Notes: generated by a model from the letters alone, not told the origin. A stretch of DNA of 28,276 bases from a virus (IMGVR_UViG_3300012171_000004:1-28276); one strand, 5' to 3'. Positions 7,214 to 20,867 are shown, numbered from the stretch's first letter. Numbers and translations are program-made.

Positions 7214-7924
7214 ATGGGCATGCAACCGACGGCGACAATTCTGAATTCCGATTGCATCCGCGGCATGGCCGAGATGGTGCCGGGGACCGTGCATCTTGCG
7301 GTGTCGTCGATTCCGTTCGAGGCCCTTTTCGTTTATTCAGGCAAAGATGAAGACGTTGGCAACAACGGCAGCACGATCGACATACTGAAAGGCCGTTTCG
7401 CGCTCAACCTTCGCTTTTTCGCCGAACAGCTTTTCCGCGTGCTCGCGCCTGGGTGCAACTGGTGTTGCCACATTCAGCAGTTGCTGGCCTACAAGAACCA
7501 GCACGGATTCTCTGGCCGCCGCGACTTCCGCGGCGCCACCGTCGACATCTTCGGCGCCGCCGGCTTCCAATTCAAAGGCGAAGTCGCGATCAACAAGGAT
7601 CCGCAGGCGCTGGCAAACAAGCTGAACCTGCACAGCCTGCAATTCAAGACCGGCCACAGTCGCACGGCAACGGATTGGGCGATGGCGCCGAACGATTACG
7701 TACTCATCTTCCAGAAGCCAGGTGAAGTTGCCGTGCCTGTTCGCCCGTTGATCTACCGCGAAGGAAAACGGCCGCTGAAACGCGACGATTGGTTCAAACA
7801 CAACGGCGCTAAAGACGATCGCCGCTACGTCACCTACCTGCGCAATTGGGGCGACGAAGTAAAAGCAAAGAACCCGCGCGGCTGGCTCAGCATGTACGAC
7901 TGGATTGGGCAATTATCCATTTGA
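7214..7924 (+). pseudogene. N4/N6 DNA methyltransferase, N-terminal half, truncated by IS1595 element 1
   Basis: NSDCIRGM, SSIPF (motif IV-like), RVLAPG, DYVLIFQKPG; no FxGxG motif; stop supplied by the IS end. Confidence 0.8.
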
Positions 7925-7963
7925 CTCATCAACGGCCATTTACAGCAAAGGGCGAACCGATGC

Positions 7964-8101
7964 TTAGGTTTTTTTGCGTTTTGCTTTTTTCTTCCGGTAT
8001 CGTTTTTCCGCGCGATCAAGTTCCTTCTTTGGAACCTGCACCAGCTTGCCGAGCAGCGCGTCAAACGCCTGTCCGCCTGTCGGTTTTTTCTCGTCAGCCA
8101 T
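7964..8101 (-). CDS. Small basic IS-associated protein (FDxL..L.QVPK.E.D..K-rich)
   Basis: GGGAGGGAG RBS; three more homologues in the window, each next to an element right end. Confidence 0.7.
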   Translation of the reverse strand: MADEKKPTGGQAFDALLGKLVQVPKKELDRAEKRYRKKKAKRKKT

Positions 8102-8115
8102 TGGACTCCCTCCCG

Positions 8116-9096
8116 TTACTGAATGCCCATGAAACCGGCGTCCCCGATCGCGCACAGCACGCGATAGGTGACGCGCTTGCCAACGACGCCTTGCATCACC
8201 GCATTGAACCGCGAGCCGTCATCCATCAAGCGGAAGTTGAAACGCCAAGCCTCTTCGTCGATGTACCGATCCAGGTGAAACGGCGCGACGTGGACGTAGG
8301 TTCCGCGAATCATCCGCTTCAACAGACTCCAGAAATTTTCGAGGCCGTTCGTGTGGACCTTGCCTTCCGCGTACTTCACGGAATGGTCAACGAAACGGTG
8401 AATGTACCGGGCCGCGATGTTTGCGTAGCTCGTGCTGCTGTCGGTGCAGACGACGGTATCCTTTTCTACGCGGCGCAGGAGTTCGCCCATCAGCGTTTCT
8501 TGTTCCGTGTTCGGGACGACTCTCGCCATGACCTGGCTGGTTTGGTCGCCGCGCTTTTCCCCGCGCTGCAAGACGCCGTGAACGATAGTCTTGCCCACGG
8601 CCCCGCGCCCCTGGATGACGCGCTCGCGTTTGGCCGCGTGCATGTTCTCCGCCAGTCCGCCGACGAAAGTTTCGTCGCTCTCGACTACATCGCGAAATTT
8701 GCGCCCGGTGGGCGTTCCTCCCATTGCCAAGCGGATGCGATGAAGCATGAACCACGCGGTAGGCTGGCGAACGCCGAGCGCCCGCGCGAGTTCGCAACTG
8801 CTGATGCCGTTCTTGGCGTTGGCGATGCACCACACGGCCACGAACCACTTATCCAAGCCGAGCGGCGAATCTTCAAAGATCGTTCCGACCTTGGCGGAAA
8901 ATTGCTTGCGGCATTCCTTCGCCTTGCATTGCAGCATGGACCGGCTGGCGATGACGCCGATCTTGTCGCCGGCGCACGCTGGGCAGACGATCTTGCCATC
9001 GGGCCATTTCTGTTTGACCAGCAGTTGCTGGCAGATAGCCAAGTCAGAGAAATGCCTTACCGCTTCGATCAAGGTTTTTGGGCCGTTCTCGTTCAT
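8116..9096 (-). CDS. IS1595-family DDE transposase
   Basis: Zn ribbon CPAC..CKAKEC, HTH ISSCELARALGVRQPTAW, catalytic-region motifs ESDET, TD, HTNGLENFWSLLKR, YIDEEAWRFN. Confidence 0.96.
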   Translation of the reverse strand: MNENGPKTLIEAVRHFSDLAICQQLLVKQKWPDGKIVCPACAGDKIGVIASRSMLQCKAKECRKQFSAKVGTIFEDSPLGLDKWFVAVWCIANAKNGISSCELARALGVRQPTAWFMLHRIRLAMGGTPTGRKFRDVVESDETFVGGLAENMHAAKRERVIQGRGAVGKTIVHGVLQRGEKRGDQTSQVMARVVPNTEQETLMGELLRRVEKDTVVCTDSSTSYANIAARYIHRFVDHSVKYAEGKVHTNGLENFWSLLKRMIRGTYVHVAPFHLDRYIDEEAWRFNFRLMDDGSRFNAVMQGVVGKRVTYRVLCAIGDAGFMGIQ

Positions 9097-9099
9097 GGG

Positions 9100-9285
9100 T
9101 TACTCTCCACAGAGGCGGTTGTATTCGTCACGCTCGCGCAGGACTTCCTCTGGCGTCTTGCCGTGCCACACGCCGCCGACGATCTTCCCATCGTCGCCGA
9201 TCTTCGGACCGCGCAGCAACTCCAGCAATTTTTGTTCGTCGTCGCCGAACGGCAAGCAATCATCGGGGATCGGTTCAATGGTCAT
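9100..9285 (-). CDS. Small hypothetical cargo protein
   Basis: AGGAG RBS; 3-nt gaps to both neighbours. Confidence 0.65.
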   Translation of the reverse strand: MTIEPIPDDCLPFGDDEQKLLELLRGPKIGDDGKIVGGVWHGKTPEEVLRERDEYNRLCGE

Positions 9286-9288
9286 TGT

Positions 9289-9963
9289 TTACTCCTGGTT
9301 GTGGTCATCGATCAATTGATTGAGTTCGTCGGCGTCGATTTCGTGCCGCATTTCCTTGAGGCGGACGCCCTTGGCCTTCATCAATTCGGCAATTTTCTTT
9401 ACCGTTGGGTATGTGGACGCGAGGCGCTCGCAAACCTCCACGATGTTATCCGACCGTTGCCACGCTGCGACAAAATCGCGCGGATCGATCTTGGCGTTTA
9501 CGGGTCGCCACGCGAGATTATCGGCGCGAATGTTTTTCGGATCACCGTCGGCGTAGGAGATGACGTAGCCGTCCGGCCTTGCGCCGATCCACGATTCGGC
9601 GACCAGCACGGCGGGGACGCAATATACGGACTTGCCGTCCTTTCGCGTCAGCTTGACGCGCCATCGATTGGATTCCTTCGGCGTGATTTTCCTTGGCGGG
9701 TCCGTGTGCGTCGAATAGACAGCGCCGTCAGCGCCGACCAAATACGCCGGGAAGAGTGGGTGGATGCGGACAGGTTCGCCGTCTGGCATTGCCGGCCTAT
9801 CGTCGTGTGGGACATTGCCGACCCCGTGCGGAGCCAAGCCCTGTTTGCGCAACCATTGGGCCACGGCGGATACACTCTTGCCGGTTGCATCTGCGATGTC
9901 GCTGCACGACATGCCGCGATCATACATCGATTGGTACGTCGCGTGGAGTTCTTTTCGTGTCAT
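9289..9963 (-). CDS. HTH + NUMOD4/HNH-like cargo protein, HNH site degenerate
   Basis: GAGGA RBS; MSCSDIADATGKSVSAVAQWL HTH; YLVGADGAVYS; LVAESWIG..ISYADGDPKNIRADNLAW. Confidence 0.7.
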   Translation of the reverse strand: MTRKELHATYQSMYDRGMSCSDIADATGKSVSAVAQWLRKQGLAPHGVGNVPHDDRPAMPDGEPVRIHPLFPAYLVGADGAVYSTHTDPPRKITPKESNRWRVKLTRKDGKSVYCVPAVLVAESWIGARPDGYVISYADGDPKNIRADNLAWRPVNAKIDPRDFVAAWQRSDNIVEVCERLASTYPTVKKIAELMKAKGVRLKEMRHEIDADELNQLIDDHNQE

Positions 9964-9972
9964 GATTTTTCC

Positions 9973-10284
9973 TCATTTGATTGTTACACGGACCAACTGC
10001 GGGAGCGGCCCCTCACTTCGGAGCGGCGGCATCACCGTACATTCAGCCCGCACTCGCTTACCCTTGACCGTGACTTTCCCACGGTAGATCGAGCCGCCGT
10101 TTTTTTGTTTCTCGCTCGCGTCCACGGCGAGCCGGGCCGTCAGGCTCAAGTCGCCAAGCTCGTTTTGAGCGGCGATGAATTCCGGGTTGTCCTCTTCCAG
10201 CTCGCCGCCGCGCCCCGTCAGTGTCATCCACTGACGGACGGCGGCGATGGTGATGTACCATTTCCAGTCGCCTCGGATCGGCAT
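9973..10284 (-). CDS. Hypothetical cargo protein
   Basis: AAGGAG RBS, 103 aa. Confidence 0.7.
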   Translation of the reverse strand: MPIRGDWKWYITIAAVRQWMTLTGRGGELEEDNPEFIAAQNELGDLSLTARLAVDASEKQKNGGSIYRGKVTVKGKRVRAECTVMPPLRSEGPLPQLVRVTIK

Positions 10285-10287
10285 AGC

Positions 10288-10860
10288 TCACTCCTTGGCA
10301 GCGTCGATGATGACTTGAGCGTTCGTGTCGCAGTTACACACGCTGTAGATGGGATCGCCGTCGGTGTATTCGTCGCTGGCGTCTTCCCCGGCGTCTTCGA
10401 TGAGGCGCTCGCTGGCGTCCTTGACCTGTGTCGGCGCCAGATCGGCATCGCGAAATTCGGCGGCGGCGGACGCAGACCAAACGCCGATCTCGCACCAGCC
10501 GCCGGCCTGGTCAGCCGTGAAATCGGCGTCGAGCCATTCTTGGGCCTGATCGTCCGCACAATTCCCGGTGAATCGGTCGCCGTGTCGTTCGAGCGTGTCG
10601 GCCATCTCGATCAGATCGGCGTCGCGTCCGACCATCTTGACCAGCGCCGCCTCGATCTCGTCGGCGTAGTCGTCAGCCTCGTCACCGCCCATCTCCACCA
10701 TTTCGCGGAGAAGGGATTCCATCGCCGCGCGGGGCGAATGGCGGAAATCGGCGACCTGGCGACCGTGTTCATCGCCTTCGATGGGGCAGGACGCTTGGGC
10801 AAAATCCGCCGTCAAGCTGTAGATGTCGCCCATGTACTCAACCGTGTACGTCGTCTTCAT
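10288..10860 (-). CDS. Highly acidic cargo protein (190 aa)
   Basis: First gene after the element promoter; hand count about 46 D+E versus 13 K+R. Confidence 0.75.
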   Translation of the reverse strand: MKTTYTVEYMGDIYSLTADFAQASCPIEGDEHGRQVADFRHSPRAAMESLLREMVEMGGDEADDYADEIEAALVKMVGRDADLIEMADTLERHGDRFTGNCADDQAQEWLDADFTADQAGGWCEIGVWSASAAAEFRDADLAPTQVKDASERLIEDAGEDASDEYTDGDPIYSVCNCDTNAQVIIDAAKE

Positions 10861-10935
10861 GATTTTTCTCGCTTCAAGGGGTCCGACCGTTTCGCCGGTC
10901 GTTCGCGTGTCCGGTGTCATTCACCCGACATCATA

Positions 10936-10963
10936 ATTATACCCGATACTCGTGATGAGTCAA
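10936..10963 (-). promoter_or_regulatory. Sigma70-type promoter overlapping an internal copy of the IR core
   Basis: Minus strand TTGACT-16 nt-TATAAT; the -35 lies in TATACACTTGACTCATCACG, matching the terminal IR. Confidence 0.75.
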
Positions 10964-11091
10964 GTGTATATTCTAGTTATTTCTGAATTTTCTCGAAAAT
11001 AGTTTTCTGTCGTTTCGGACAGGGTATTAGCGTGATGAGTCAAATGGATAATTGCCAAAGGCAAGCATGGAAATCCGAAAGGATGCAAACA

Positions 11092-11646
11092 ATGGCCCGC
11101 ACCGACGACAACTGGATTCAGTCTTTCACTGGCCGGCAAGTATGGCCACTCGATCCGCGCCTCGAGGACATCGACATCCGCGACATCGCGCACCACTTGG
11201 CGATGAAGTGCAGATTCACCGGCGCGGTCAAACGATTCTACTCCGTCGCGCAACATTGCGTCATCGGCTCGCGTTACATCGCGCCTGAGCATGCGCTTTG
11301 GTTTCTCCTGCACGATGCGCCCGAGGCCTACCTATTCGACGCAGCCCGGCCGATCAAGGCCGAGCGGCCATTCATCAAAGAGGACGAAAACCGGCTCATG
11401 GCGTGCATCGCTGCAAAGTTCGAGTTGCCGATGCCGGAGCCAGAAGCCGTGAAGCAGATGGATTATGTGATGCTCCGGACGGAGCGACGAGACTTCATGA
11501 ACGCACCGCCCAGGCCGTGGGCTGACCGTGGGTACGAACCGCTCGCGGAAACGCTGGTGAGCTGGGACCCGGACAAGGCCGAGGCGGAATACCTCATGCA
11601 GTTCGGCAATCTACTGCGAATGCGGCTGCGGAGTATCTGCGAATGA
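11092..11646 (+). CDS. HD-domain phosphohydrolase (YfbR-like 5'-deoxynucleotidase family)
   Basis: IDIRDIAHHLAMKCRFTG, YSVAQH, LLHDAPEAY. Confidence 0.85.
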   Translation: MARTDDNWIQSFTGRQVWPLDPRLEDIDIRDIAHHLAMKCRFTGAVKRFYSVAQHCVIGSRYIAPEHALWFLLHDAPEAYLFDAARPIKAERPFIKEDENRLMACIAAKFELPMPEPEAVKQMDYVMLRTERRDFMNAPPRPWADRGYEPLAETLVSWDPDKAEAEYLMQFGNLLRMRLRSICE

Positions 11647-11689
11647 GAACGAGACCAATTTGTCATGGAATCTTTGGCAGGGATGAACG

Positions 11690-12436
11690 ATGGGCTTTGA
11701 AATACCACTCGATTCGGACTACCCAGAGCATCCGAAGGTTTTGGCCCTGATCGCCTTGCTTGGCGACATGGCCGACGCCATCCCCGTTCGGCTCTGGTGC
11801 TGGTGCGCCAAGTATCAAAAGGACGGCATAGTCCGCGGCGGGCCCGACGCAATTGAAAAGGCCGTCAAATGGAAAAAGAAAAAAGGCGTTTGCCACAAAG
11901 CTCTCATGGAGGTCGGCCTGGTCGATCCCGACGGTATTACCGTCCACGATTGGGGAGACTGGGCCGGTCGAAAAATCGACGCCTACGAGAAGAAAAAAAA
12001 GCGACAAAGAGAGGAGTACGAAGGTCGGAATTCTGCCGGAAGAAACCTGGAAGAAGGTCGGAATTCTGCCGGCATTCTGCAAACCCTAAAAGAAACGAAA
12101 AGAAACGAAAAGAAAACAAACGAAACGAAACGAAACGAAACCGCGCAATCGGCGGAAGAACTTTCGATCGAGCAATTGGCCCAAGATGCGGCTTTCGACG
12201 AGGGTTTTGGCACGAAGCCGGATCGAATCGCCCTTTGGCACAAACACCTCAAAGACCTGGAAAAACGCGGGTTTTCGCTGATTGACCTCGAACGCGAACT
12301 CGCAAACAAGCCGCGAGACACCGAGCCGCCGTGGGAGTTTTACAAGCGTTTGGAGAAGGCCAATGGAAACCAAATTGACCCCTACGCAGGATTCAAAACG
12401 GTCGCCGCCAACGCTAAGGAAGCCCCTGCCGGATGA
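11690..12436 (+). CDS. Phage replication initiator-like protein
   Basis: HPKV..RLWCW..HDW N-terminal domain, internal direct repeats and A-rich tract, followed by a helicase-loader-type gene. Confidence 0.65.
   Translation: MGFEIPLDSDYPEHPKVLALIALLGDMADAIPVRLWCWCAKYQKDGIVRGGPDAIEKAVKWKKKKGVCHKALMEVGLVDPDGITVHDWGDWAGRKIDAYEKKKKRQREEYEGRNSAGRNLEEGRNSAGILQTLKETKRNEKKTNETKRNETAQSAEELSIEQLAQDAAFDEGFGTKPDRIALWHKHLKDLEKRGFSLIDLERELANKPRDTEPPWEFYKRLEKANGNQIDPYAGFKTVAANAKEAPAG
12020..12140. repeat. Putative replication origin: 20-bp direct repeats plus A-rich tract
   Basis: GAAGGTCGGAATTCTGCCGG at 12020-12039 and 12053-12072, then (GAAAC/GAAAA)n; lambda O-like layout. Confidence 0.6.
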
Positions 12437-12977
12437 GGCCGAGACGTTTTGTACAGTGCTCTCGCCTCTCGCGGCCATCTGTCGGCCACCGCTGGACCCC
12501 GAACAAGTTTTGGGATACTTCAACGCCTTGGCCGATCTTCCCCCCGAGGCGATTTTCGTCGCTGCGACCGAGATTGCTGCCGTGCGGCAGTACCCGAGCT
12601 GGCCGATGCCCGGCGAGATCCGGACCGTTGCCGTTCGCTTCATGGCGCCGCAGGTGACGGCTGGCGAGGCCTGGGCCCTGGCACAAAAGGCGGCGCGCCT
12701 GCTCGCCGATCCGTCGATCGACTTCAAAAACGGAAAGCCGGTCGCAGAATGGAACGACCAGATCTTCGCGGCGTTGCCGCCGGCGGTGCAGAAAACGCTC
12801 CGGATTTTCGGCGGACGGCGCATCCTCGAAACGCAAGCCGTGTACGCGAATTTTCGCGACGAGTACGAACGGCAGGTTGCGTTGATCCGTCGACCGCTCA
12901 TGTTGCCGGCGCCGGCGAAAACGTTAATCGCCGGTTTGCTCGCGAAAAGCGACGTTGCGAGGAAACTGATCGCATGA
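12363..12977 (+). CDS. Helicase loader/inhibitor-like (G39P-like) protein
   Basis: YFNALADLP..WPMPGEIR..AGEAW; position after the initiator gene. Confidence 0.55.
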   Translation: METKLTPTQDSKRSPPTLRKPLPDEAETFCTVLSPLAAICRPPLDPEQVLGYFNALADLPPEAIFVAATEIAAVRQYPSWPMPGEIRTVAVRFMAPQVTAGEAWALAQKAARLLADPSIDFKNGKPVAEWNDQIFAALPPAVQKTLRIFGGRRILETQAVYANFRDEYERQVALIRRPLMLPAPAKTLIAGLLAKSDVARKLIA

Positions 12978-13030
12978 CTCAATCCCTCTTCATGACCGGC
13001 GACGCCACGTTCAGCCCATGCGGCCGCTAT
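12974..13030 (+). pseudogene. DUF1643-like protein N-terminal stub, cut by the MITE
   Basis: MTQSLFMTGDATFSPCGRY matches the AxFSxCGxYRY start of DUF1643 proteins; the remainder is absent after the MITE. Confidence 0.6.
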
Positions 13031-13206
13031 GGCAATGACATACTTGACGCATCAAAGGAGCGTGGTTTATTCACGCAGCGTTTGTGATGGGGAGCGTCCA
13101 CAGCTACCCGTGGCCAGACCCTCGCAGCCGATCTAACGGGCATCGGCACAGTGAATTGTGGAGCCGGAGAATAACCGGCCTTTGATGCGTCAAGTATGTC
13201 ATTGCC
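13031..13206. mobile_element. IS1595-related MITE (176 bp)
   Basis: Perfect 28-bp IR GGCAATGACATACTTGACGCATCAAAGG (13031-58 and 13179-206); its first 24 bp are identical to the end at 17446; no TSD. Confidence 0.85.
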
Positions 13207-13227
13207 CAAAAAATCAGGCCCCCCCCG

Positions 13228-13422
13228 ATGTTTGGCCTTTTACTCGCGCTCTCCCTGGTGCTCGGCGCCTGCGTGTTGTTGGTGGGCCGCTTGTTCTGTC
13301 TGGCGGTCTACGGCCCGCTCGATGAGCATAACAGCGATCGCATCGGCTGCGCCTCACTGGTCTCGCTGGTATTGATTATTAGCGCGTTTGTGTTGGCGGT
13401 CGTTGCGCTGTGTTCGCTTTAA
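13228..13422 (+). CDS. Small membrane protein (2 TM)
   Basis: Two hydrophobic stretches; weak RBS. Confidence 0.5.
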   Translation: MFGLLLALSLVLGACVLLVGRLFCLAVYGPLDEHNSDRIGCASLVSLVLIISAFVLAVVALCSL

Positions 13423-13434
13423 GGAGTCCCCTTG

Positions 13435-13668
13435 ATGTTCCAGATCACCAATCCCCGCGACTTGACGCCGGCCGAGATCGACGACTTATTGTTGACGTTC
13501 GATCAAACGGACCCGGCATTGCAACGCCGGATCATCGCGCGTTACATGATCGATCGAACCGTGCTATTGGACGCCTGTAGGAAGACGGCCGCGGCGGATG
13601 AAAGGAACTTCGGCGAGATGCAAGGAATGCTGGAAGCGGTCATACAGAACGTGACGAGGAAACCATGA
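13435..13668 (+). CDS. Hypothetical protein
   Basis: AAGGAG RBS; ATGA overlap with the next gene. Confidence 0.6.
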   Translation: MFQITNPRDLTPAEIDDLLLTFDQTDPALQRRIIARYMIDRTVLLDACRKTAAADERNFGEMQGMLEAVIQNVTRKP

Positions 13669-15125
13669 GCGCGCGGATTCTACAAGGCGACGTGTTCTCC
13701 CAGCTGCCGACGATCAAGCCCCGATCGGTCGATTGCGTCGTTACGTCGCCGCCCTACTGGATGCTCCGCTCGTATCTCCCGAAAGGTAATCTCTTGAAAC
13801 GTTTCGAGTTGGGCCTTGAGAAGACGCCGCAAGAGTACATCGCCAACATGGTCCGCGTGTTCCAGCTGGTGCGCGAGACGATGGCCGATCATGCGACGTG
13901 CTGGATCAACGTGGGGGACACTTACGCGGACGATTCAAAGTACGGCGGCGCAACGGGCGGCAAGCACGTAAAGGCACTGCACGGCCAAACTGGAATCAAC
14001 AGAGAGAAAAAGGAATCGGGCATTGACGCCGGCAACCTTTGCCTCATCCCGCAACGCCTGATGATCGCCTTGCAGGATGATGGCTGGATTGTCCGTAGCG
14101 TGGTGATCTGGCACAAGCCCGCGCCGATGCCGAGTAGCGTGTCAGGTTGGGCATGGAAGCGATGCCGCATCAGGGATCCAAAATTCACGCACACGCAATA
14201 CGGCGGCAAAGGCGCGGAGCTTGACAGGCAATCAGCGTCGGAGCGAATCAAGCAAAACGTCGCAACAAGCCGCGCCAATGGCATGCCGCACGACAGCGCG
14301 ACGGTAGGACATCTCGGCTGGATCGACTGCCCAGGCTGCAAAAAGTGTCGGCCAGCTGGCGGCTACGTCCTCCGCAAAGGCAGCTGGCGTCCCACGTCGG
14401 CGTATGAGCCGATCATCATGCTCGCGAAGACGGCGGATTACTTTTGCGATGGCGAATCAGTTAAGACGCCGAGCAACGGGCATCGCGGTTCGTCGTTCGT
14501 GGATCAACGGGACTTCGACGTTTACGAGAACCTCGGTACGGACGCAAGGGCAGAAGTGAGTAGCGCGAATCTCCGCGACGTTTGGCGTGTCCCGCTTGAG
14601 GACATGAGCAAGGAAGATTTGATCGGCTTCATTCAGAGCATGGACGATGGCCATCTGCCGGACGTATGGCGCATCGCCGCCGAGCCCCTCAAGGACGCCC
14701 ACTACGCCGCCTTCCCCACGGAGTTAGCCAGGAAGTGCCTGCAAGCCGGAACCTCGGCGAAGGGCTATTGTCCAGCGTGCGGCAAGCCGTGGGTGCGCGT
14801 CATCGAATCGAAGTCGGTGCCTCATCCAAGCCCGCGAAAGAACGTAACGAATCGCCAAGGTGCTATCGACACCAAGGGCGGCAACCAGGCGAACGGGAGC
14901 GCATCGACGAGTCCAGAGGTCAACACGATCGGCTGGCGGCCGTCGTGCAGCTGCCCAAAGGATGAACCGCGTCCCGCTCTCGTGCTCGATCCCTTCGCCG
15001 GGAGCGGTCGAACTGGTCAAGCGGCGCAATGGTTGGGCCTCGATTTTGTCGGCGTCGAGTTGAACCCTGTCTACGTGGAAATGGCCGAACGAATCTTGAG
15101 AGAGGACGCGCCGTTATTCGCTTAA
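13665..15125 (+). CDS. N4/N6 DNA methyltransferase (beta arrangement) with Cys-rich insertions
   Basis: VVTSPPY near the N-terminus, HYAAFP, VLDPFAGSG, GVELNPVY near the C-terminus. Confidence 0.92.
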   Translation: MSARILQGDVFSQLPTIKPRSVDCVVTSPPYWMLRSYLPKGNLLKRFELGLEKTPQEYIANMVRVFQLVRETMADHATCWINVGDTYADDSKYGGATGGKHVKALHGQTGINREKKESGIDAGNLCLIPQRLMIALQDDGWIVRSVVIWHKPAPMPSSVSGWAWKRCRIRDPKFTHTQYGGKGAELDRQSASERIKQNVATSRANGMPHDSATVGHLGWIDCPGCKKCRPAGGYVLRKGSWRPTSAYEPIIMLAKTADYFCDGESVKTPSNGHRGSSFVDQRDFDVYENLGTDARAEVSSANLRDVWRVPLEDMSKEDLIGFIQSMDDGHLPDVWRIAAEPLKDAHYAAFPTELARKCLQAGTSAKGYCPACGKPWVRVIESKSVPHPSPRKNVTNRQGAIDTKGGNQANGSASTSPEVNTIGWRPSCSCPKDEPRPALVLDPFAGSGRTGQAAQWLGLDFVGVELNPVYVEMAERILREDAPLFA

Positions 15126-15239
15126 ACCGTTGCCAACGCAAAACAGGCCAGTCAAAAGGGAGTCCGTCGAAAGCCTCAACGCAAAAGCGTACGCGCTTCC
15201 CGCAGCAGGATTTTCGTGTACCGCAAAAAGGAAAATCAA

Positions 15240-15434
15240 ATGGACAGCTATCACACCATCCCCAACACGAATGCCAAAGGCACCCTACTCTGTCTGGGCA
15301 AGTCGATCAGAGCTACATTCATTGATCCTGACGAAGCCGCGTTAGCAGCCGAAGCATTGAACGCGGTGATCGATGCGCCGATAGCGCTCGTGCCCGTCGA
15401 GGACCTCCAGCCCGCCTATCGGATGGAGGATTGA
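15240..15434 (+). CDS. Hypothetical protein
   Basis: AAGGA RBS before MDSYH. Confidence 0.5.
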   Translation: MDSYHTIPNTNAKGTLLCLGKSIRATFIDPDEAALAAEALNAVIDAPIALVPVEDLQPAYRMED

Positions 15435-15437
15435 GCG

Positions 15438-15650
15438 ATGATCGACCGCACCAAGAAAATCAACGGCCACAAGCCAAAGTCCCCGGCCGAACGCCTTGTC
15501 GAAGAGCTGGCCGCATTGAACCGCAAGCGCGAGGAACGCCTGAACCGTTTGGATCGCGATCATCGCATCTGGAATTGGTGCTGGGTCATCTTCGTCGGCG
15601 TCGGGTTGTTGGTTGTTATTGTGCAGATGGTTTCCACGATGCTGAGGTAA
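15438..15650 (+). CDS. Small protein with C-terminal TM helix
   Basis: GGAGGA RBS; WVIFVGVGLLVVIV. Confidence 0.6.
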   Translation: MIDRTKKINGHKPKSPAERLVEELAALNRKREERLNRLDRDHRIWNWCWVIFVGVGLLVVIVQMVSTMLR

Positions 15651-15652
15651 AA

Positions 15653-15792
15653 CCTCTCGCTGACCGCCGTGCGACATGCTGCCCGTCTAGCGCTGCGGGC
15701 GGCTTCTCCGGTGTGCGAAACAAGCCGCGTTACTCGAAGAGCGCGGTTTGGGCTGAGCTATCCGTACTCGATTCACGGCGGTCAACGAGGGG
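15653..15792 (+). ncRNA. Candidate multibranch, degenerate tRNA-like RNA
   Basis: 19-nt closing arms 15653-71 and 15774-92 (17/19 match), two inner hairpins, T-loop-like CCGTA-CTCGATT-CACGG. Confidence 0.45.
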
Positions 15793-15813
15793 CTTTGAGA
15801 CGAAAGGTGTTGC

Positions 15814-16044
15814 ATGAAACCCGAAGCTGAAATCCGCTCGCACATCGAAAGTTTGCGCACCTGTCAACAGATTCCATGCGGCTGCAAGGGCACGGCGCAC
15901 GCGCACGAGTGCATTGCCGGCGGAAAGATGATGAAGGCCGTTGAGATGTCGTTGTTGTGGGCGCTCGGCGAAAATCCGGCGCACGAGGAAATGGTCGCAG
16001 ATTTGCGCCGTGCGGCCGACGATTACAAAACGAGCCTCAATTGA
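15814..16044 (+). CDS. Hypothetical protein
   Basis: AAAGGTG RBS; 76 aa. Confidence 0.6.
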   Translation: MKPEAEIRSHIESLRTCQQIPCGCKGTAHAHECIAGGKMMKAVEMSLLWALGENPAHEEMVADLRRAADDYKTSLN

Positions 16045-16298
16045 ACGTGCCGACCGACGTGTTGACGACATTGACCAGTTATGAAGGTGCCGGGATTCAT
16101 TCGGATTCCAAGCCGCACATCGTCACGAAGGACGGGATACGCCGACTCACGGCAAGGGAGCACGAGAGAGCGCAGGGTTTCCCGGATGATTGGACTGACG
16201 GGCTACAAGATCGAACGCGGCGGATGCTGGTCGGAAATGCAGTGGTGCCGGCGATAGCAGAATGGATCGGCACTCGCTTGATGCGTCAGGTATGTTAA
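16041..16298 (+). pseudogene. C5 cytosine methyltransferase C-terminal fragment (motifs IX-X)
   Basis: IRRLTAREHERAQGFPDDW and GNAVVPAIAEWIG; stop lies inside the IS end at 16279-16302. Confidence 0.8.
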
Positions 16299-16302
16299 TG
16301 CC
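16279..16302. mobile_element. Orphan IS1595-type end
   Basis: TGATGCGTCAGGTATGTTAATGCC; 1 mismatch to the reverse complement of the end at 16472. Confidence 0.75.
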
Positions 16303-16333
16303 CAACCCAAGAGGAAGACGTGATGAACGCCGC

Positions 16334-16388
16334 GTTCGCAAGTTCGCGGGTTCGCGGGTTCGCTCGCGGGTTCGCGGGTTCGCTCGCG
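16334..16388. repeat. GTTCGC-based tandem repeat
   Basis: Perfect 20-mer TCGCGGGTTCGCGGGTTCGC at 16344-63 and 16364-83; six GTTCGC units in total. Confidence 0.85.
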
Positions 16389-16509
16389 TCTGGGGTCCTT
16401 CCCCGGCTTTTGACGTCCGACACTGCACCACGAACAGCCGGAAAACCAAACTTTGTTGCGCAGTTTCGTTGGGCATTAACATACTTGACGCATCACGGAG
16501 CGAAAACGG

Positions 16510-16731
16510 GTGACTGACCTGCGTTCTCCATATCCCTGGTTTGGTGGCAAGATCGGCGCGTATTGTCTGTGGGGCAAGTTTCCCGATTTCGAGGCGACGA
16601 CGAGCAAGCGCAAGGAATCGCTGCCAAGCTGGAAGAAGCAAGAGCGGGCGCTTGTGCCATACTCAATTTCGCTGGCGCTGGCGCTGGCGTGCGAGGCGAA
16701 ATGGAACGGGATCATTGAGGTGGCTGTATGA
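16510..16731 (+). pseudogene. Chimeric remnant: Dam-like N-terminus fused to an unrelated C-terminus
   Basis: SPYPWFGGK is the start of D12-class adenine MTases; the rest (LWGKFP..ERALVPYSIS) is not Dam-like. Confidence 0.55.
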
Positions 16732-16961
16732 ACGCCAAACAAAAGAATGCAGTCGTTCGCTTGGGGAAAGCCCTGGAAGCCTGTCACAAAGCCGGACTGA
16801 TGGGCGGCGTCTATGACGGATCGTTTTGGGCATGGCCAGCCGCCTCGCCTGACCCGCGAGACGGTCCCGACAAAGAGTTCGGAGCGTTCTTTCTCAACGT
16901 CGATGCGGTTGGAATGAAGGCAGAAACCAAGATGTCCCTTGATGGTGGCGCAGGAGCTTAA
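16728..16961 (+). CDS. Hypothetical cargo protein
   Basis: GAGGTG RBS; 77 aa. Confidence 0.65.
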   Translation: MNAKQKNAVVRLGKALEACHKAGLMGGVYDGSFWAWPAASPDPRDGPDKEFGAFFLNVDAVGMKAETKMSLDGGAGA

Positions 16962-16964
16962 TTC

Positions 16965-17240
16965 ATGAATCATTCGGTGAAGTACGTCGAAGGCCGGGTT
17001 CACACGAACGGGCTGGAGAATTTCTGGAGTCTGTTGAAGCGATGCGTTCGCGGAACCTGGGTCCACGTTGCGCCGTTCCACTTGCAGCGCTATCTCGACG
17101 AACAATGCTGGCGATTCAATTTCCGCAAGCTCACCGATGGGCAGCGATTCAGCGCGGTCATGAAAGGTGTTCTCGGCAGACGGATCACGCGGCGCTTGTT
17201 GTGCGCCGAAGGCGATGCCGGATTTATGGGGATCGAGTGA
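16965..17240 (+). pseudogene. IS1595 transposase C-terminal 91 aa
   Basis: HTNGLENFWSLLKR..GDAGFMGIE, homologous to the two full transposases. Confidence 0.9.
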
Positions 17241-17380
17241 TGACGAAATCCAAGGATCGGAAGGAGTTCGACAAGGCAATGGCGGCGCTAGTCCAGGTGC
17301 CGAAAACGGAAATGGACGACGCTCTACGCAAAGAGCGAGAGGCGAAGGCCAAAGCCAAGAAAAAGCGCAAACGAAAGTGA
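17240..17380 (+). CDS. Small basic IS-associated protein
   Basis: MTKSKDRKEFDKAMAALVQVPKTEMDD..KKKRKRK; TGATG coupling to the transposase. Confidence 0.7.
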   Translation: MTKSKDRKEFDKAMAALVQVPKTEMDDALRKEREAKAKAKKKRKRK

Positions 17381-17446
17381 AAAACAGAGTGTCCATTGTT
17401 GCCCTACTGGTTCGCCTTACCTTGATGCGTCAAGTATGTCATTGCC

Positions 17447-17619
17447 AAAGCATTCGATAGTCTCGCGAAGAAATTGGCGCAGGTTCCGCGCAATCTCGTT
17501 GATGCTGCCGAGCAGCGACACGAGAAAAAGAAGCAACAGAAGAAAAAGAAGCGGAAATCATAGTTCGGTATTAGCCTTGCTCGCTGACCCCGGTTGGTGA
17601 GCCAGGTATCCAAACCGCC
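17447..17619 (+). mobile_element. Remnant right end of a fourth related element
   Basis: 17447-17563 encodes KAFDSLAKKLAQVPRNLVD..KKKKRKS*, followed by a degenerate end TGGTGAGCCAGGTATCCAAACCGCC. Confidence 0.6.
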
Positions 17620-17966
17620 CACGGCCCCCGAAGTGAGCAAAGAGAACTCGAACTCACTGAGGGAAGAAAACTCCCGTCGAAAACGCGAAAAGTGCCAGGC
17701 CACGCGATACAATGGCGGCAAAGGAGTTGAACATGTCCCTGAACGAACGCCTAACAAAATACGGAATTCGGTGCAGAGTCTTCACGTACGCGCGTTGCGG
17801 CTGCGTCGGCCCCGGCAACTGGGTCGCATGCCAGAAGTGCGACACCGAAGCAGCCACGGCCAATCCCAAAGAAAGGCAATTATCCATTTGACTCACCACG
17901 GTCAAACCTGTCACATTGACAGGCGCACTATTTCGAGAAATCTTGTCGGATAACTGAATTATACAC

Positions 17967-17994
17967 TTGACGCACCACGCTTTTCTGTTAGAAT
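17967..17994 (+). promoter_or_regulatory. Sigma70-type promoter overlapping an internal copy of the IR core
   Basis: TTGACG-16 nt-TAGAAT; the -35 lies in AATTATACACTTGACGCACCACG. Confidence 0.7.
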
Positions 17995-18073
17995 GTAGGT
18001 GTCAGGACGAATCCTGACGACGCGGTTCGGGCGAGTCCGAACGGTAGGGCTGACAACCCTGGGAGATTGAGCA

Positions 18074-18391
18074 ATGACAAAGAAAAAAGCAGAGTCCGGC
18101 AAGTCCGCGACCCACACTCCTGGTCCTTGGAAATTCATCGAAGGCGACCGGGATCGCATGGCGATGAGCGATGTTGTCTTGGAATCTGATGATGAATTCC
18201 GCATCGCTTACGTTCTTTGCGAATTCAGAAGTGAGCAAGCCCGCGCAACCGACATTGCGAATGCGCGCCTGATCGCCAGCGCGCCGGACTTGCTTGAAGT
18301 TCTGGAAATGGTCGCAACCCTGGATCGCGCCACGACTGCTGGCGAGAAACGTAAAATCGCGGCAGTTATCGCCAAAGCGAAGGGGGCGTGA
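18074..18391 (+). CDS. Phage-type cargo protein (HTPGPW..ANARLIAxAPDLLE family)
   Basis: GGGAG RBS; motif widespread in small phage proteins. Confidence 0.75.
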   Translation: MTKKKAESGKSATHTPGPWKFIEGDRDRMAMSDVVLESDDEFRIAYVLCEFRSEQARATDIANARLIASAPDLLEVLEMVATLDRATTAGEKRKIAAVIAKAKGA

Positions 18392-18394
18392 ACT

Positions 18395-18820
18395 ATGAGG
18401 ATCAAGAAATCCAAATTGGTCGCTCGCGACGAAGTTAATTCGTTGTTGTCGTTTCTGCGCGACTACTCCCGCGCCAAACGCGGCTCGGCTATGGCGCTCA
18501 TCCGAGAGCTTCGCCTGGCTATCCGGCAGGCGAATCACGGACAGAGCGGTGAACTTGAGGACGGGAGCGACGACTATTGTCCTTCGCTGGCGGAAGGCGA
18601 CGTTTTGCTCGCGATCCTGAACATGGTCGAACGAGACTTTGGAATCAAGGTTTCCAGCCTGGACCGTGTTGGGCGCTGTGATTGGGAAATCCTCGATCAC
18701 GTCGAAAAGAAGGTCGAACATTCGGACGAGTGCAAGGCCATCCAGCCGATGCTGTCCGGCACCGACACGAGCGGTTGTCACGCTAACTGCCCTGTTGCCA
18801 AAGCGAAAGGTGGTGCGTAA
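18395..18820 (+). CDS. Hypothetical cargo protein
   Basis: 141 aa, 3-nt gap to the upstream gene. Confidence 0.7.
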   Translation: MRIKKSKLVARDEVNSLLSFLRDYSRAKRGSAMALIRELRLAIRQANHGQSGELEDGSDDYCPSLAEGDVLLAILNMVERDFGIKVSSLDRVGRCDWEILDHVEKKVEHSDECKAIQPMLSGTDTSGCHANCPVAKAKGGA

Positions 18821-19069
18821 ATGGCGAAGAAAAAACAGATGTCCGCGACCGACCTTGCCAAACTCTGCCAGTCGCTCAACGTGCCCGACGAGGCATTCGA
18901 CGGCGATCTGCGCGACGCCGCCGACGACGCAGCGGAATTGATTTTCGAGACCGTCAAAGGTCAGGATTGGGATGAAAAGTTCCAATTCCTGATGGACCAC
19001 GGCTTTCAACCGGGGCGATTGCAACAGTTGATTGAGGAGTACGCCAACACCGGCGGTAATCCTCTGTGA
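18821..19069 (+). CDS. Small acidic cargo protein
   Basis: AGGTGG RBS; abuts the upstream stop; D/E-rich core. Confidence 0.7.
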   Translation: MAKKKQMSATDLAKLCQSLNVPDEAFDGDLRDAADDAAELIFETVKGQDWDEKFQFLMDHGFQPGRLQQLIEEYANTGGNPL

Positions 19070-19153
19070 CGAAACCCCTCCCGCGCGGTGCGGGCTGTCA
19101 ACCTGCCAGTCGCAAGACTGAAAGCCGCGCGGGAGACATTTTTCGAGAACAGC

Positions 19154-19456
19154 ATGACTAATGAACAATGGAAAGAACGCCTGCTGCGAGACACCAGCAG
19201 AGGCGGCTTGTCCGATTACAAAATCAGCGATTTGCGACGTGCAGCGAAAGAGGCAGGCGCGACCGTCGAGCGAGACTCGGAAGGACGATACACCGTCTAT
19301 CAAATCATTGCGCCAGAAGGAAAGCTGTGGGCCGATGGCGCATGCTCCGCAATGCGTGTTGAATGGCTCACTGGATACGGAGATTTCCGCAGTCTCTCGA
19401 TTGGCGGCGCAATTCAGCGCATGGAAGCTGGTTTCATTGACGACGAAGGGGAATGA
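19154..19456 (+). CDS. Hypothetical cargo protein
   Basis: ATG after a structured spacer; 100 aa. Confidence 0.65.
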   Translation: MTNEQWKERLLRDTSRGGLSDYKISDLRRAAKEAGATVERDSEGRYTVYQIIAPEGKLWADGACSAMRVEWLTGYGDFRSLSIGGAIQRMEAGFIDDEGE

Positions 19457-19459
19457 ACC

Positions 19460-20431
19460 ATGAACGACGAAGGCCCGCAAACCCTGATCGAAGCCGTGAA
19501 ACACTTCGCCGACTTGACGCTGTGCCACAAGCTGATGGTCAACCTCAAGTGGCCAGACGGCAAAATCGTCTGCCCGAAATGCGGCGGGGACAAAATCGGG
19601 ATGATTGCAACTCGCTCGCTCCTGCGATGCAACACGAAGGGATGCCGGAAGCAGTTTAGCGCCAAGGTCGGAACCATCTTCGAGGATTCGCCTCTCGGCT
19701 TGGATAAGTGGTTCGTCGCTGTGTGGTGCATTGCCAACGCCAAGAACGGCATCAGCTCGTGCGAGCTGGCGCGGGCTCTTGGCGTGCGCCAGCCTACCGC
19801 GTGGTTCATGCTCCATCGCGTTCGGCTCGCGATGAATACTCCATCGGGCCGCAAGTTTCACAACGTTGTCGAGTCCGACGAAACCTACATCGGCGGCGCT
19901 GCTGCGAACATGCACAAGGCGAAGCGCGAGAAAGTCATCAAGGGCCGTGGCGGAGTCGGCAAGGTCATCGTGCAGGGATTGCTGGAGCGCGGCAACAAAG
20001 ACGACGTTAGCCAGGTCAAGGCCACGGTTGTCCCGAACGTTGAGCAAATCACGCTGATGGGCGAATTGATGCGCCACGTCGAACCCAACACGTTCGTCTG
20101 TACGGATAGTTCCCTGAGCTACGCCAATCTCGCGGCCCGATACGTTCACGAATTCGTCGATCATTCGGTGCAATACGTGCGCGGCAAAGTCCACACGAAC
20201 GGGCTTGAAAATTTCTGGTCGCTTTTGAAACGGATGATCCGGGGAACCTACGTCAGTGTTGCGCCATTCCACTTGCAGCGGTATCTCGACGAAGAGGTTT
20301 GGCGCTACAACCAACGGAAGCTGAACGATGGACGACAGTTCGCTCTGGCGATGAAAGGCACCATCGGAAAACGCATCACGTACCGGCTGCTCTGTGCGGT
20401 CGGGGACGCTGGTTTCATGGGGATCGAATGA
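19460..20431 (+). CDS. IS1595-family DDE transposase
   Basis: CPKC..CNTKGC, HTH, ESDETY, TDSS, HTNGLENFWSLLKR; clearly homologous but not identical to 8116-9096. Confidence 0.96.
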   Translation: MNDEGPQTLIEAVKHFADLTLCHKLMVNLKWPDGKIVCPKCGGDKIGMIATRSLLRCNTKGCRKQFSAKVGTIFEDSPLGLDKWFVAVWCIANAKNGISSCELARALGVRQPTAWFMLHRVRLAMNTPSGRKFHNVVESDETYIGGAAANMHKAKREKVIKGRGGVGKVIVQGLLERGNKDDVSQVKATVVPNVEQITLMGELMRHVEPNTFVCTDSSLSYANLAARYVHEFVDHSVQYVRGKVHTNGLENFWSLLKRMIRGTYVSVAPFHLQRYLDEEVWRYNQRKLNDGRQFALAMKGTIGKRITYRLLCAVGDAGFMGIE

Positions 20432-20664
20432 TGAGCAAGTGCAAGGAATGCAACGGGCTTGGCGACCATTCAAACGCGGCCCTTGGAAGAGGATCGTCGC
20501 ACCCATGCCCTCGGTGTGGCGGAACTGGCGTTGAGCCAAAGCAGAAACCGACTGGCGGCAAGGCGTTCGATGCGCTGGCATCGGCGCTTGTGCGCGTTCC
20601 GAAAGCGGAAGTCGATCAAGCGGCAAAACGATACCGAGCAAAACGGCGAAAAAAGAAAAAATGA
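20428..20664 (+). CDS. Small basic IS-associated protein with N-terminal CxxCxGxG Zn finger
   Basis: CKECNGLG..CPRCGGTG, then KPTGGKAFDALASALVRVPKAEVD..KKKK. Confidence 0.7.
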   Translation: MMSKCKECNGLGDHSNAALGRGSSHPCPRCGGTGVEPKQKPTGGKAFDALASALVRVPKAEVDQAAKRYRAKRRKKKK

Positions 20665-20867
20665 ACGTCATTGGTTTAGCCTTTGCTGTCATCGCGGTTT
20701 GGTGAGTCAAATGGATAATTGCCCAAAGAAACCATCGCGCCGACGGACGAACCAACCGCCGACGCCGACAAGCCGACGCTCATCAGCAAGGAACCGGAAT
20801 GACCACGAACATAGACGACCGAATCGACCAAGTCCTTTTCCCGTTGGGACGAACGCGCTAGACCAGC

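Follow-up and report, generated by a model that had tools for sequence, protein, structure and literature searches.

The window analysed here, i.e., the whole stretch IMGVR_UViG_3300012171_000004, is an entire phage record of 28,276 bases and carries three related IS1595-family transposons, elements 1, 2 and 3. In each of them an antisense open reading frame (ORF) runs almost from end to end, opposite the cargo and the transposase. This open reverse frame is real and under selection across the clade of relatives around elements 1 and 3. The antisense protein sequence is unconstrained; it is openness that is selected. We lean slightly towards the frame being a ribosome bridge, which would make backwards insertions in phage operons non-polar.

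Open antisense frames in the window and in relatives

The ten gene coordinates of elements 1 and 3 in the original prediction all translated cleanly, with gaps of 3, 3, 9 and 3 nt in element 1 and 3, 0, 84 and 3 nt in element 3, as it had claimed. Each set of five genes consists of four cargo genes and the transposase. The predicted stop-free frames of 1008 and 889 codons were recovered from their ATGs, and the codon-aligned frame opposite the genes contains a single stop per element, at 10984 and 18002. The remaining two antisense-strand frames of these elements have 25–39 stops. The ten genes contain no TTA, CTA or TCA in 1665 codons, where 14.6 would be expected from their Leu/Ser content; for comparison, 26 hand-picked phage genes of the window have 47 in 5258 codons. 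Element 3 has a further in-frame ATG at 20692, 31 nt inside its end. The antisense ORF of element 2 (17396–16476, 306 aa) and its 3-nt gap are also present as described, and a weakly called off-register ORF lies at 16510–16731. The shadow frame of the terminase is broken, as predicted, by 6 stops. Because chance shadow frames still reach 473 aa over the terminase and 359 aa over the portal gene, the proof rests on the relatives and not on the window. The odds of 1 in 6561 originally given for the gap phases used the wrong null, since flanking phage gene pairs join in frame in only 107/480 cases and gap phase and open frame are mutually dependent.

Relatives were collected by four scans, which gave about 270 loci, and element ends were determined from the loci themselves. 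After truncated or stop-bearing transposases were dropped, 251 intact near-full transposases were kept, of which 221 are distinct at 90%; L001, L114 and L194, identical to the window, were excluded before counting. The clade comprises 42 relatives (47–87% identical, FastTree support 0.985, midpoint root), and 38 complete elements remained after four members without both ends were set aside. Elements 1 and 3 are sisters in this tree. Genes were called by our own simple amino-acid log-odds caller, so that errors are possible among the small genes called off register. Viral contigs are the origin of 36/42 clade members versus 38/179 relatives outside, and the three clade members from named genomes are all from Planctomycetota. 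Only 2 distant matches were found among 50,697 annotated phage records, and the best plasmid match among those listed was 38.7%. Within IS1595, the ISNwi1 subgroup has end and catalytic signatures of its own.

One antisense frame is open over at least 90% of the length in 30/38 complete clade elements (488–1025 codons), versus 2/131 outside. Over the 20,423 codons of these 30 elements, which were themselves selected for openness, about 321 stops would be expected, 143 of them opposite spacers or off-register genes. The avoidance of stop complements, which the original prediction had named as a check, was evident in the codon usage. Clade transposases hold 5 TTA/CTA/TCA in 12,261 codons (0.4 per 1000). 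The rate is 6.0 per 1000 for transposases of the outgroup and 12.0 for genes in the flanks. In the clade transposases GCA, CCA and GGA are used normally, and other A-ending codons are not depleted. Transposases free of all three codons number 35/38 in the clade, with 4.3 expected from each locus's own flanks. The same holds for 43/121 outgroup transposases against 14.2 expected, so a weaker form of the avoidance reaches beyond the clade. Of eight distant plasmid IS1595 transposases inspected as well, a single one lacks antisense stops, and its open frame reaches no more than 12 and 6 nt past the gene. Two outgroup elements placed far from the clade in the tree, at L098:5950-8320 and L100:5934-7796, have end-to-end antisense frames (96% and 99%), possibly of independent origin.

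The encoded sequence showed no comparable constraint. Third-base identity at four-fold sites is 0.39–0.44 at 50–79% protein identity, versus 0.36 by chance; the excess is similar in outgroup genes with broken frames, and no column reached 90%. Antisense substitutions are no more conservative than the null (−0.43 versus −0.43). Members differ in the frame of the antisense N-terminus, as the small basic gene opposite it changes frame. The claim that openness and not antisense protein sequence is under selection therefore held in both the codon and the substitution tests within the clade.

The register of the cargo was more variable than the original prediction had it. Upstream cargo stands in the transposase register in 44/54 clade genes, versus 38/129 outgroup cargo genes and the 107/480 of flanking pairs given above, so the predicted bias is strong. 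It is not a rule for all cargo, as 10/54 upstream and 29/32 downstream clade genes are off register, among them the small basic gene in most members. Likewise, a PAPS-reductase-like passenger (phrog_424) lies off register behind the transposase at L211:5213-6034 and L203:6998-7822; the two genes, of 273 aa each, are 52% identical, and the antisense frame stays open across both. The register lock is thus a tendency. Antisense stops are fewest in register (11.8 per 1000 codons, versus 33.9 and 25.4 off register), so a single register would be the cheapest way to stay open and not a requirement, and register probably follows from openness.

Entry, exit and proposed function of the frame

The frame has its own entry. 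An in-register ATG lies 20–62 nt inside the right end in 27/30 open elements, versus 4 and 1 for the other frames. The start motif predicted to be conserved is common to the sister elements 1 and 3, but it did not extend across the clade. Shine-Dalgarno (SD)-like words precede 13/29 starts versus 4.1 in shuffles. An ATGA or GTGA overlap with a stop codon occurs at 21/29 starts, versus 140/316 called genes (p=0.006), and in 17 of these the overlapped stop is the first in its frame counted from the end. ATGA-type spacing is reported as most favourable to translational coupling (PMC12548453). Incoming frames enter the start or stop beside it in 38/87 cases, versus 26.9 in a planted-ATG control. 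The excess of stops within 12 nt before the start is weak (15/29 versus 10.1 in shuffles, p=0.05).

Promoters were predicted at the opposite end. Sigma70-type sites scoring at least 10 were found at the left end of 22/30 elements and at the right end of none. An inward right-end promoter was accordingly rejected for the clade, where a single element of 30 scores 9 and none 10. Since strong right-end promoters are missing in 30/30, the frame likely needs read-through transcripts, i.e., it would be readable only from a transcript entering from outside. The presence of an own start codon and the lack of a strong own promoter fit what a read-through bridge requires. The outgroup is arranged differently. 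In 8/40 transposase-first outgroup elements with cargo on the reverse strand, a 262–433-codon antisense frame begins on the stop codon of a real gene of this cargo, like a gene in an operon. A right-end promoter-like site occurs in 36/97 transposase-first relatives. Cargo is mostly on the reverse strand, covering it, in 63/97 outgroup elements.

At the exit, the antisense frame reaches to within 0–130 nt of the left end and stops in the area of the sense promoter. Intrinsic terminators are few on both strands (5 sense and 3 antisense in 63 kb), and their count in the window is not above shuffles. A start codon reading outward from the left repeat into an ORF of at least 50 aa was found in 5/9 hand-picked backwards copies versus 5/24 others, a number partly expected by chance; a restart of host genes from it is a lead only. 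In L195, a 439-aa ORF begins at the same left-repeat position as the in-frame start of the HD-phosphatase gene of the window (11032–11646).

The bridge would work as follows. Rho terminates untranslated transcripts, and therefore a 2–3 kb backwards insertion would be polar. The reverse frame stays open from the right-end start codon as far as the promoter region of the left end. When such an element inserts backwards into a phage operon, a read-through transcript would cross it. Ribosomes may load or re-initiate at the frame start and cover this transcript, and the cover would prevent Rho termination or decay, so that downstream genes stay expressed. The frame would then be translated, its benefit would be the relief of polarity, and cargo would be filtered at capture. 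A broader proposal has about an even chance of being right: the elements would be built for ribosome crossing both ways, their own on-ramp catching ribosomes from interrupted genes and the sequence-free reverse frame making untargeted insertions non-polar, and this need would decide which passengers are captured and in which frame.

Insertions inside called genes number 14/25 in the clade versus 19/85 outside, and 22/26 clade insertions with both flanks decided (+ or −) lie in co-directional gene runs. Backwards copies are found upstream of terminase genes in the case of L196, and of a replication initiator in those of element 1 and L216. Rho-like genes were found in the three named planctomycete hosts and in two close outgroup hosts, four of the five above the family cut-off, which supports the bridge.

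Several points weigh against the bridge. Of the antisense starts, 16/29 have no SD-like word, and 49/87 incoming frames are not captured. An incoming transcript meets the element in only 12/31 clade insertions with an assigned orientation (14 co-directional, 8 backwards), and copies in sense orientation, element 3 among them, still keep intact frames. Insertion backwards is also seen in outgroup elements that lack a full frame (22 versus 15; 11 versus 4 on viral contigs), although the outgroup cargo mostly covers the reverse strand, as given above. The excess of insertions inside genes is confounded because the clade is so largely viral. The exit is uncoupled: in 10 backwards copies, 57–1179 nt lie between the antisense stop and the following called gene, more than 400 nt in 5 of them. 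Phage antitermination, if present, would reduce the need for a bridge. The broken frames L010, L248, L222 and L116 have a + right flank and L225 is ambiguous, which is too few for decay in sense-oriented copies to be judged. Contigs of three metatranscriptomes give low, unstranded cover of elements 1 and 3, and two of the three show no cover over the part of the terminase examined.

Other explanations of the open frame

The frame may instead serve self-control, its translation letting incoming antisense transcription reach the left-end promoter and silence or stimulate transposase and cargo in cis. This would account for a frame that stops near the sense promoter instead of at a host gene. In IS5, antisense ins5CB driven from an outside promoter was reported to raise transposition about twofold (PMC11677980), and the transposase-first relatives have their right-end promoter-like sites and in some cases couple the frame to their own cargo. 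Without an inward promoter in the clade, however, such control would act only in the 12/31 transcript-facing copies, and it leaves unexplained why starts overlap the first stop of the incoming frame; we consider it unlikely. Another role is still less probable, i.e., that the frame guards a backwards-transcribed template, including excised circles, from R-loops and transcript damage while downstream genes are unaffected. Untranslated antisense RNA was described to form harmful R-loops when Rho fails to stop it (PMC11551753), and an IS1595-family element to form circles (PMC12561309), but Rho is present in the named hosts and no circle joint was seen in eight contig runs.

A functional product of the ORF, be it an entire protein or a domain opposite the transposase, is quite improbable. 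The start position of the ORF is conserved, often behind an SD-like word, and a homolog search with the antisense protein gave two database proteins among 8000 candidates, both matching the first 379 aa. Against this stand the unconstrained synonymous sites and antisense substitutions, an N-terminus that changes frame between members, and a length of 488–1025 codons over largely unrelated cargo; the antisense ORF of element 1 has no Pfam or PHROG match. The least probable explanation, to which we give hardly any credence, is that the open frame simply follows from GC-rich codons and closely packed genes. The long chance shadow frames of the window and a GC content at third codon positions (GC3) of 0.76 in clade transposases would favour it. 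But flanking genes at GC3 0.73 use TTA/CTA/TCA 30 times more while other A-ending codons are undepleted, and spacers and off-register genes are open as well. Together these counts already contradict the explanation. Moreover, 7/8 distant IS1595 transposases at GC3 0.63–0.83 have antisense stops, and none of the eight extends more than 120 nt past the gene. Two further candidates were dropped. An in-frame read-through fusion of the intein type was rejected, element length modulo 3 being even across classes (10, 8 and 12 of 30), and a structured RNA or intron was unsupported: the window gave no match to Rfam, and in none of eight runs was an element skipped precisely.

Elements, phage context and related systems

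By every family feature tested, the elements are IS1595 passenger elements. Reported family features include a zinc-ribbon/DDE transposase, short inverted ends and an 8-bp AT-rich duplication (PMC12561309). The transposases match the DDE domain PF12762 and the zinc ribbon PF12760 with E-values of 2e-38 and 1e-06 in element 1 and 2e-37 and 2e-08 in element 3. Catalytic motifs lie at residues 138, 214 and 246 of the element 3 transposase, like the IS1016 subfamily motifs given in the same source (PMC12561309). The 24-bp terminal inverted repeats are identical within elements 1 and 3, an 8-bp target duplication was found for element 3 and 132 non-redundant relatives (66% AT), and variable passenger genes lie between the ends, as in the IS1595 transporter insertion sequences (IS). 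The consensus of the 132 duplications is loosely palindromic. Passenger-carrying members of the family are reportedly the transporter IS of Siguier et al. 2009. What sets the clade apart is the element-long antisense frame, present in only 2/131 outgroup elements and in none of the eight distant plasmid elements, which were checked over the transposase.

Nine related 24-bp end repeats in the window bound the three elements and a 176-bp unit, and one is unpaired (Table 1). The predicted sense promoters of elements 1 and 3 each share bases with a subterminal end-repeat copy (10936–10980 and 17950–17994), an arrangement that suggests autorepression by the transposase. A small basic protein behind the transposase occurs in most clade elements in varying frames; it matched no Pfam family, and its Atlas clusters hold up to 1072 hypothetical proteins.

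Table 1. Coordinates of the transposons, their genes and adjoining phage features in the window
Feature	Position	Strand	Remarks
Phage DNA methyltransferase gene, truncated by element 1	7214..7924	+	
Element 1, IS1595-family, passenger-carrying, 3149 bp	7908..11056	-	Antisense to phage genes; no target duplication; ends joined to different flanks in other alleles
Element 1 right terminal inverted repeat, 24 bp	7908..7931	+	Terminates incoming methyltransferase frame at 7922-7924
Element 1 antisense ORF, 1008 aa	7960..10986	+	ATG 52 nt inside right end; no Pfam/PHROG match
Element 1 small basic gene, 51 aa	7964..8119	-	Off register; overlaps transposase stop; hypothetical-protein family
Element 1 IS1595 transposase, 326 aa	8116..9096	-	PF12760 and PF12762
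Element 1 cargo gene, 61 aa	9100..9285	-	No assigned function
Element 1 cargo gene, 224 aa	9289..9963	-	Helix-turn-helix and HNH endonuclease domain
Element 1 cargo gene, 103 aa	9973..10284	-	No assigned function
Element 1 cargo gene, acidic, 190-210 aa	10288..10920	-	No assigned function; start 10860 or 10920
Element 1 sense promoter, sigma70-type (predicted)	10936..10963	-	11/12 matches; overlaps subterminal end-repeat copy
Element 1 left terminal inverted repeat	11033..11056	-	Outward reading: start codon in frame with downstream HD-phosphatase gene
Phage replication initiation gene	11690..12436	+	Downstream of backwards element 1; same strand as antisense ORF
Non-autonomous element, 176 bp, related ends	13031..13206	.	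Interrupts phage gene; uninterrupted allele in three DNA runs
Orphan end repeat	16279..16302	-	
Element 2, internally deleted, 975 bp	16472..17446	+	Cargo 16728-16961; transposase 3' remnant 16965-17240; small basic gene 17240-17380
Element 2 antisense ORF, 306 aa	16476..17396	-	Shares register with cargo gene and transposase remnant
Element 3, 2849 bp	17875..20723	+	Perfect 24-bp ends; 8-bp target duplication 17867-17874/20724-20731; phage-gene direction; inside small gene
Element 3 sense promoter, sigma70-type (predicted)	17967..17994	+	10/12 matches; overlaps subterminal repeat copy
Element 3 four cargo genes, single register	18074..19456	+	18074-18391 (phrog_1273), 18395-18820, 18821-19069, 19154-19456
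Element 3 IS1595 transposase, 323 aa	19460..20431	+	75% identical to element 1 transposase
Element 3 small basic gene	20428..20664	+	Zinc-finger-like insert; off register
Element 3 antisense ORF, 889 aa	18002..20671	-	896 aa from ATG at 20692

The phage genome itself contains ParB-like, RusA, replication initiator, terminase, portal and head genes, all on the + strand. The terminase large subunit (20868–23360) has an N-terminal HNH domain within the same ORF. The gene hit by the 176-bp element begins at 12974, and its uninterrupted allele occurs in runs X7, X14 and X16; its N-terminus recalls what we take to be DUF1643. Before element 2 lie a DNA methyltransferase 3' fragment (16041–16298), the orphan end repeat and a short tandem repeat (16336–16383), and the region 16041–16510 looks rearranged.

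Other alleles were found in the sequencing runs. The end of element 1 was joined at 7334, different flanks were seen at 7908, 11059 and 13031, and an uninterrupted gene allele was seen at 13030. The joint at 7334, where 573 bases are skipped, was present in one RNA and two DNA runs and is likely an adjacent deletion. Elements 1 and 2 have no target duplication, and their joints are shifted in other alleles. These alleles and the missing duplications point to recent activity with adjacent deletions. Neither a precise skip of an element nor a circle joint was seen in the eight runs, which are contigs and drop rare forms.

No description of an element-long antisense frame in IS1595 was found in the literature searched, which did not cover most subscription papers, including the family description. 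The closest bacterial case is the hed ORF of IS900 (IS110 family), which lies opposite the transposase, spans the element, depends on host transcription and is described as having no known function (PMC8141618). The clade frame is alike in covering the whole element opposite the transposase in 30/38 elements. The hed ORF has no ribosome binding site or start codon of its own, and IS900 targets host initiation signals (PMC8141618). Unlike hed, the clade frame has its own ATG in 27/30, crosses three to five exchangeable genes, and travels with elements that insert at AT-rich 8-bp targets in both directions, 14/25 times within genes.

Ambigrammatic narnaviruses likewise have a codon-aligned reverse ORF of nearly unit length, avoidance of TTA/CTA/TCA and an unconstrained protein. 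Their reverse ORFs must be translated (PMC8316113), the protein appears unconstrained (PMC8155312), and it is the act of translation that is proposed to count. They are, however, eukaryotic RNA viruses with one gene per segment, in which translation of the reverse ORF and the need for it were demonstrated (PMC8316113, PMC8155312), whereas the present case is a multi-gene DNA transposon of bacteria, spacers included, with a putatively translated reverse frame. In IS5, the antisense frames of ins5CB lie inside the transposase gene and are expressed mainly from outside promoters (PMC11677980); they are two small nested ORFs with proposed protein roles and span neither element nor cargo. MIRUs, the interspersed repetitive units of mycobacteria, contain an ORF thought to limit harm to the host operon via translational coupling (PMC12548453). 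MIRUs are short, insert at start codons and are coupled at the exit, whereas the clade elements have signs of coupling at the entry and an uncoupled exit. The reverse frame works like hed and the narnavirus ambigrams but is a member of neither, being distinct in its own start codon, untargeted insertion and exchangeable multi-gene cargo.

Long "hypothetical proteins" of this sort can be selected and yet sequence-free, which is a warning for annotation, and a natural design is suggested for non-polar insertion cassettes. The elements also offer a direct test of what IS900 hed and shadow ORFs like it are for, as about 30 diverged elements show selection. If the bridge is true, it adds a filter on cargo capture, none being described in the literature searched. 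A transposon would then lower its cost to the host via selection on translatability alone, with no useful protein needed, and this would explain how 2–3 kb elements persist in phage operons upstream of replication and packaging genes.

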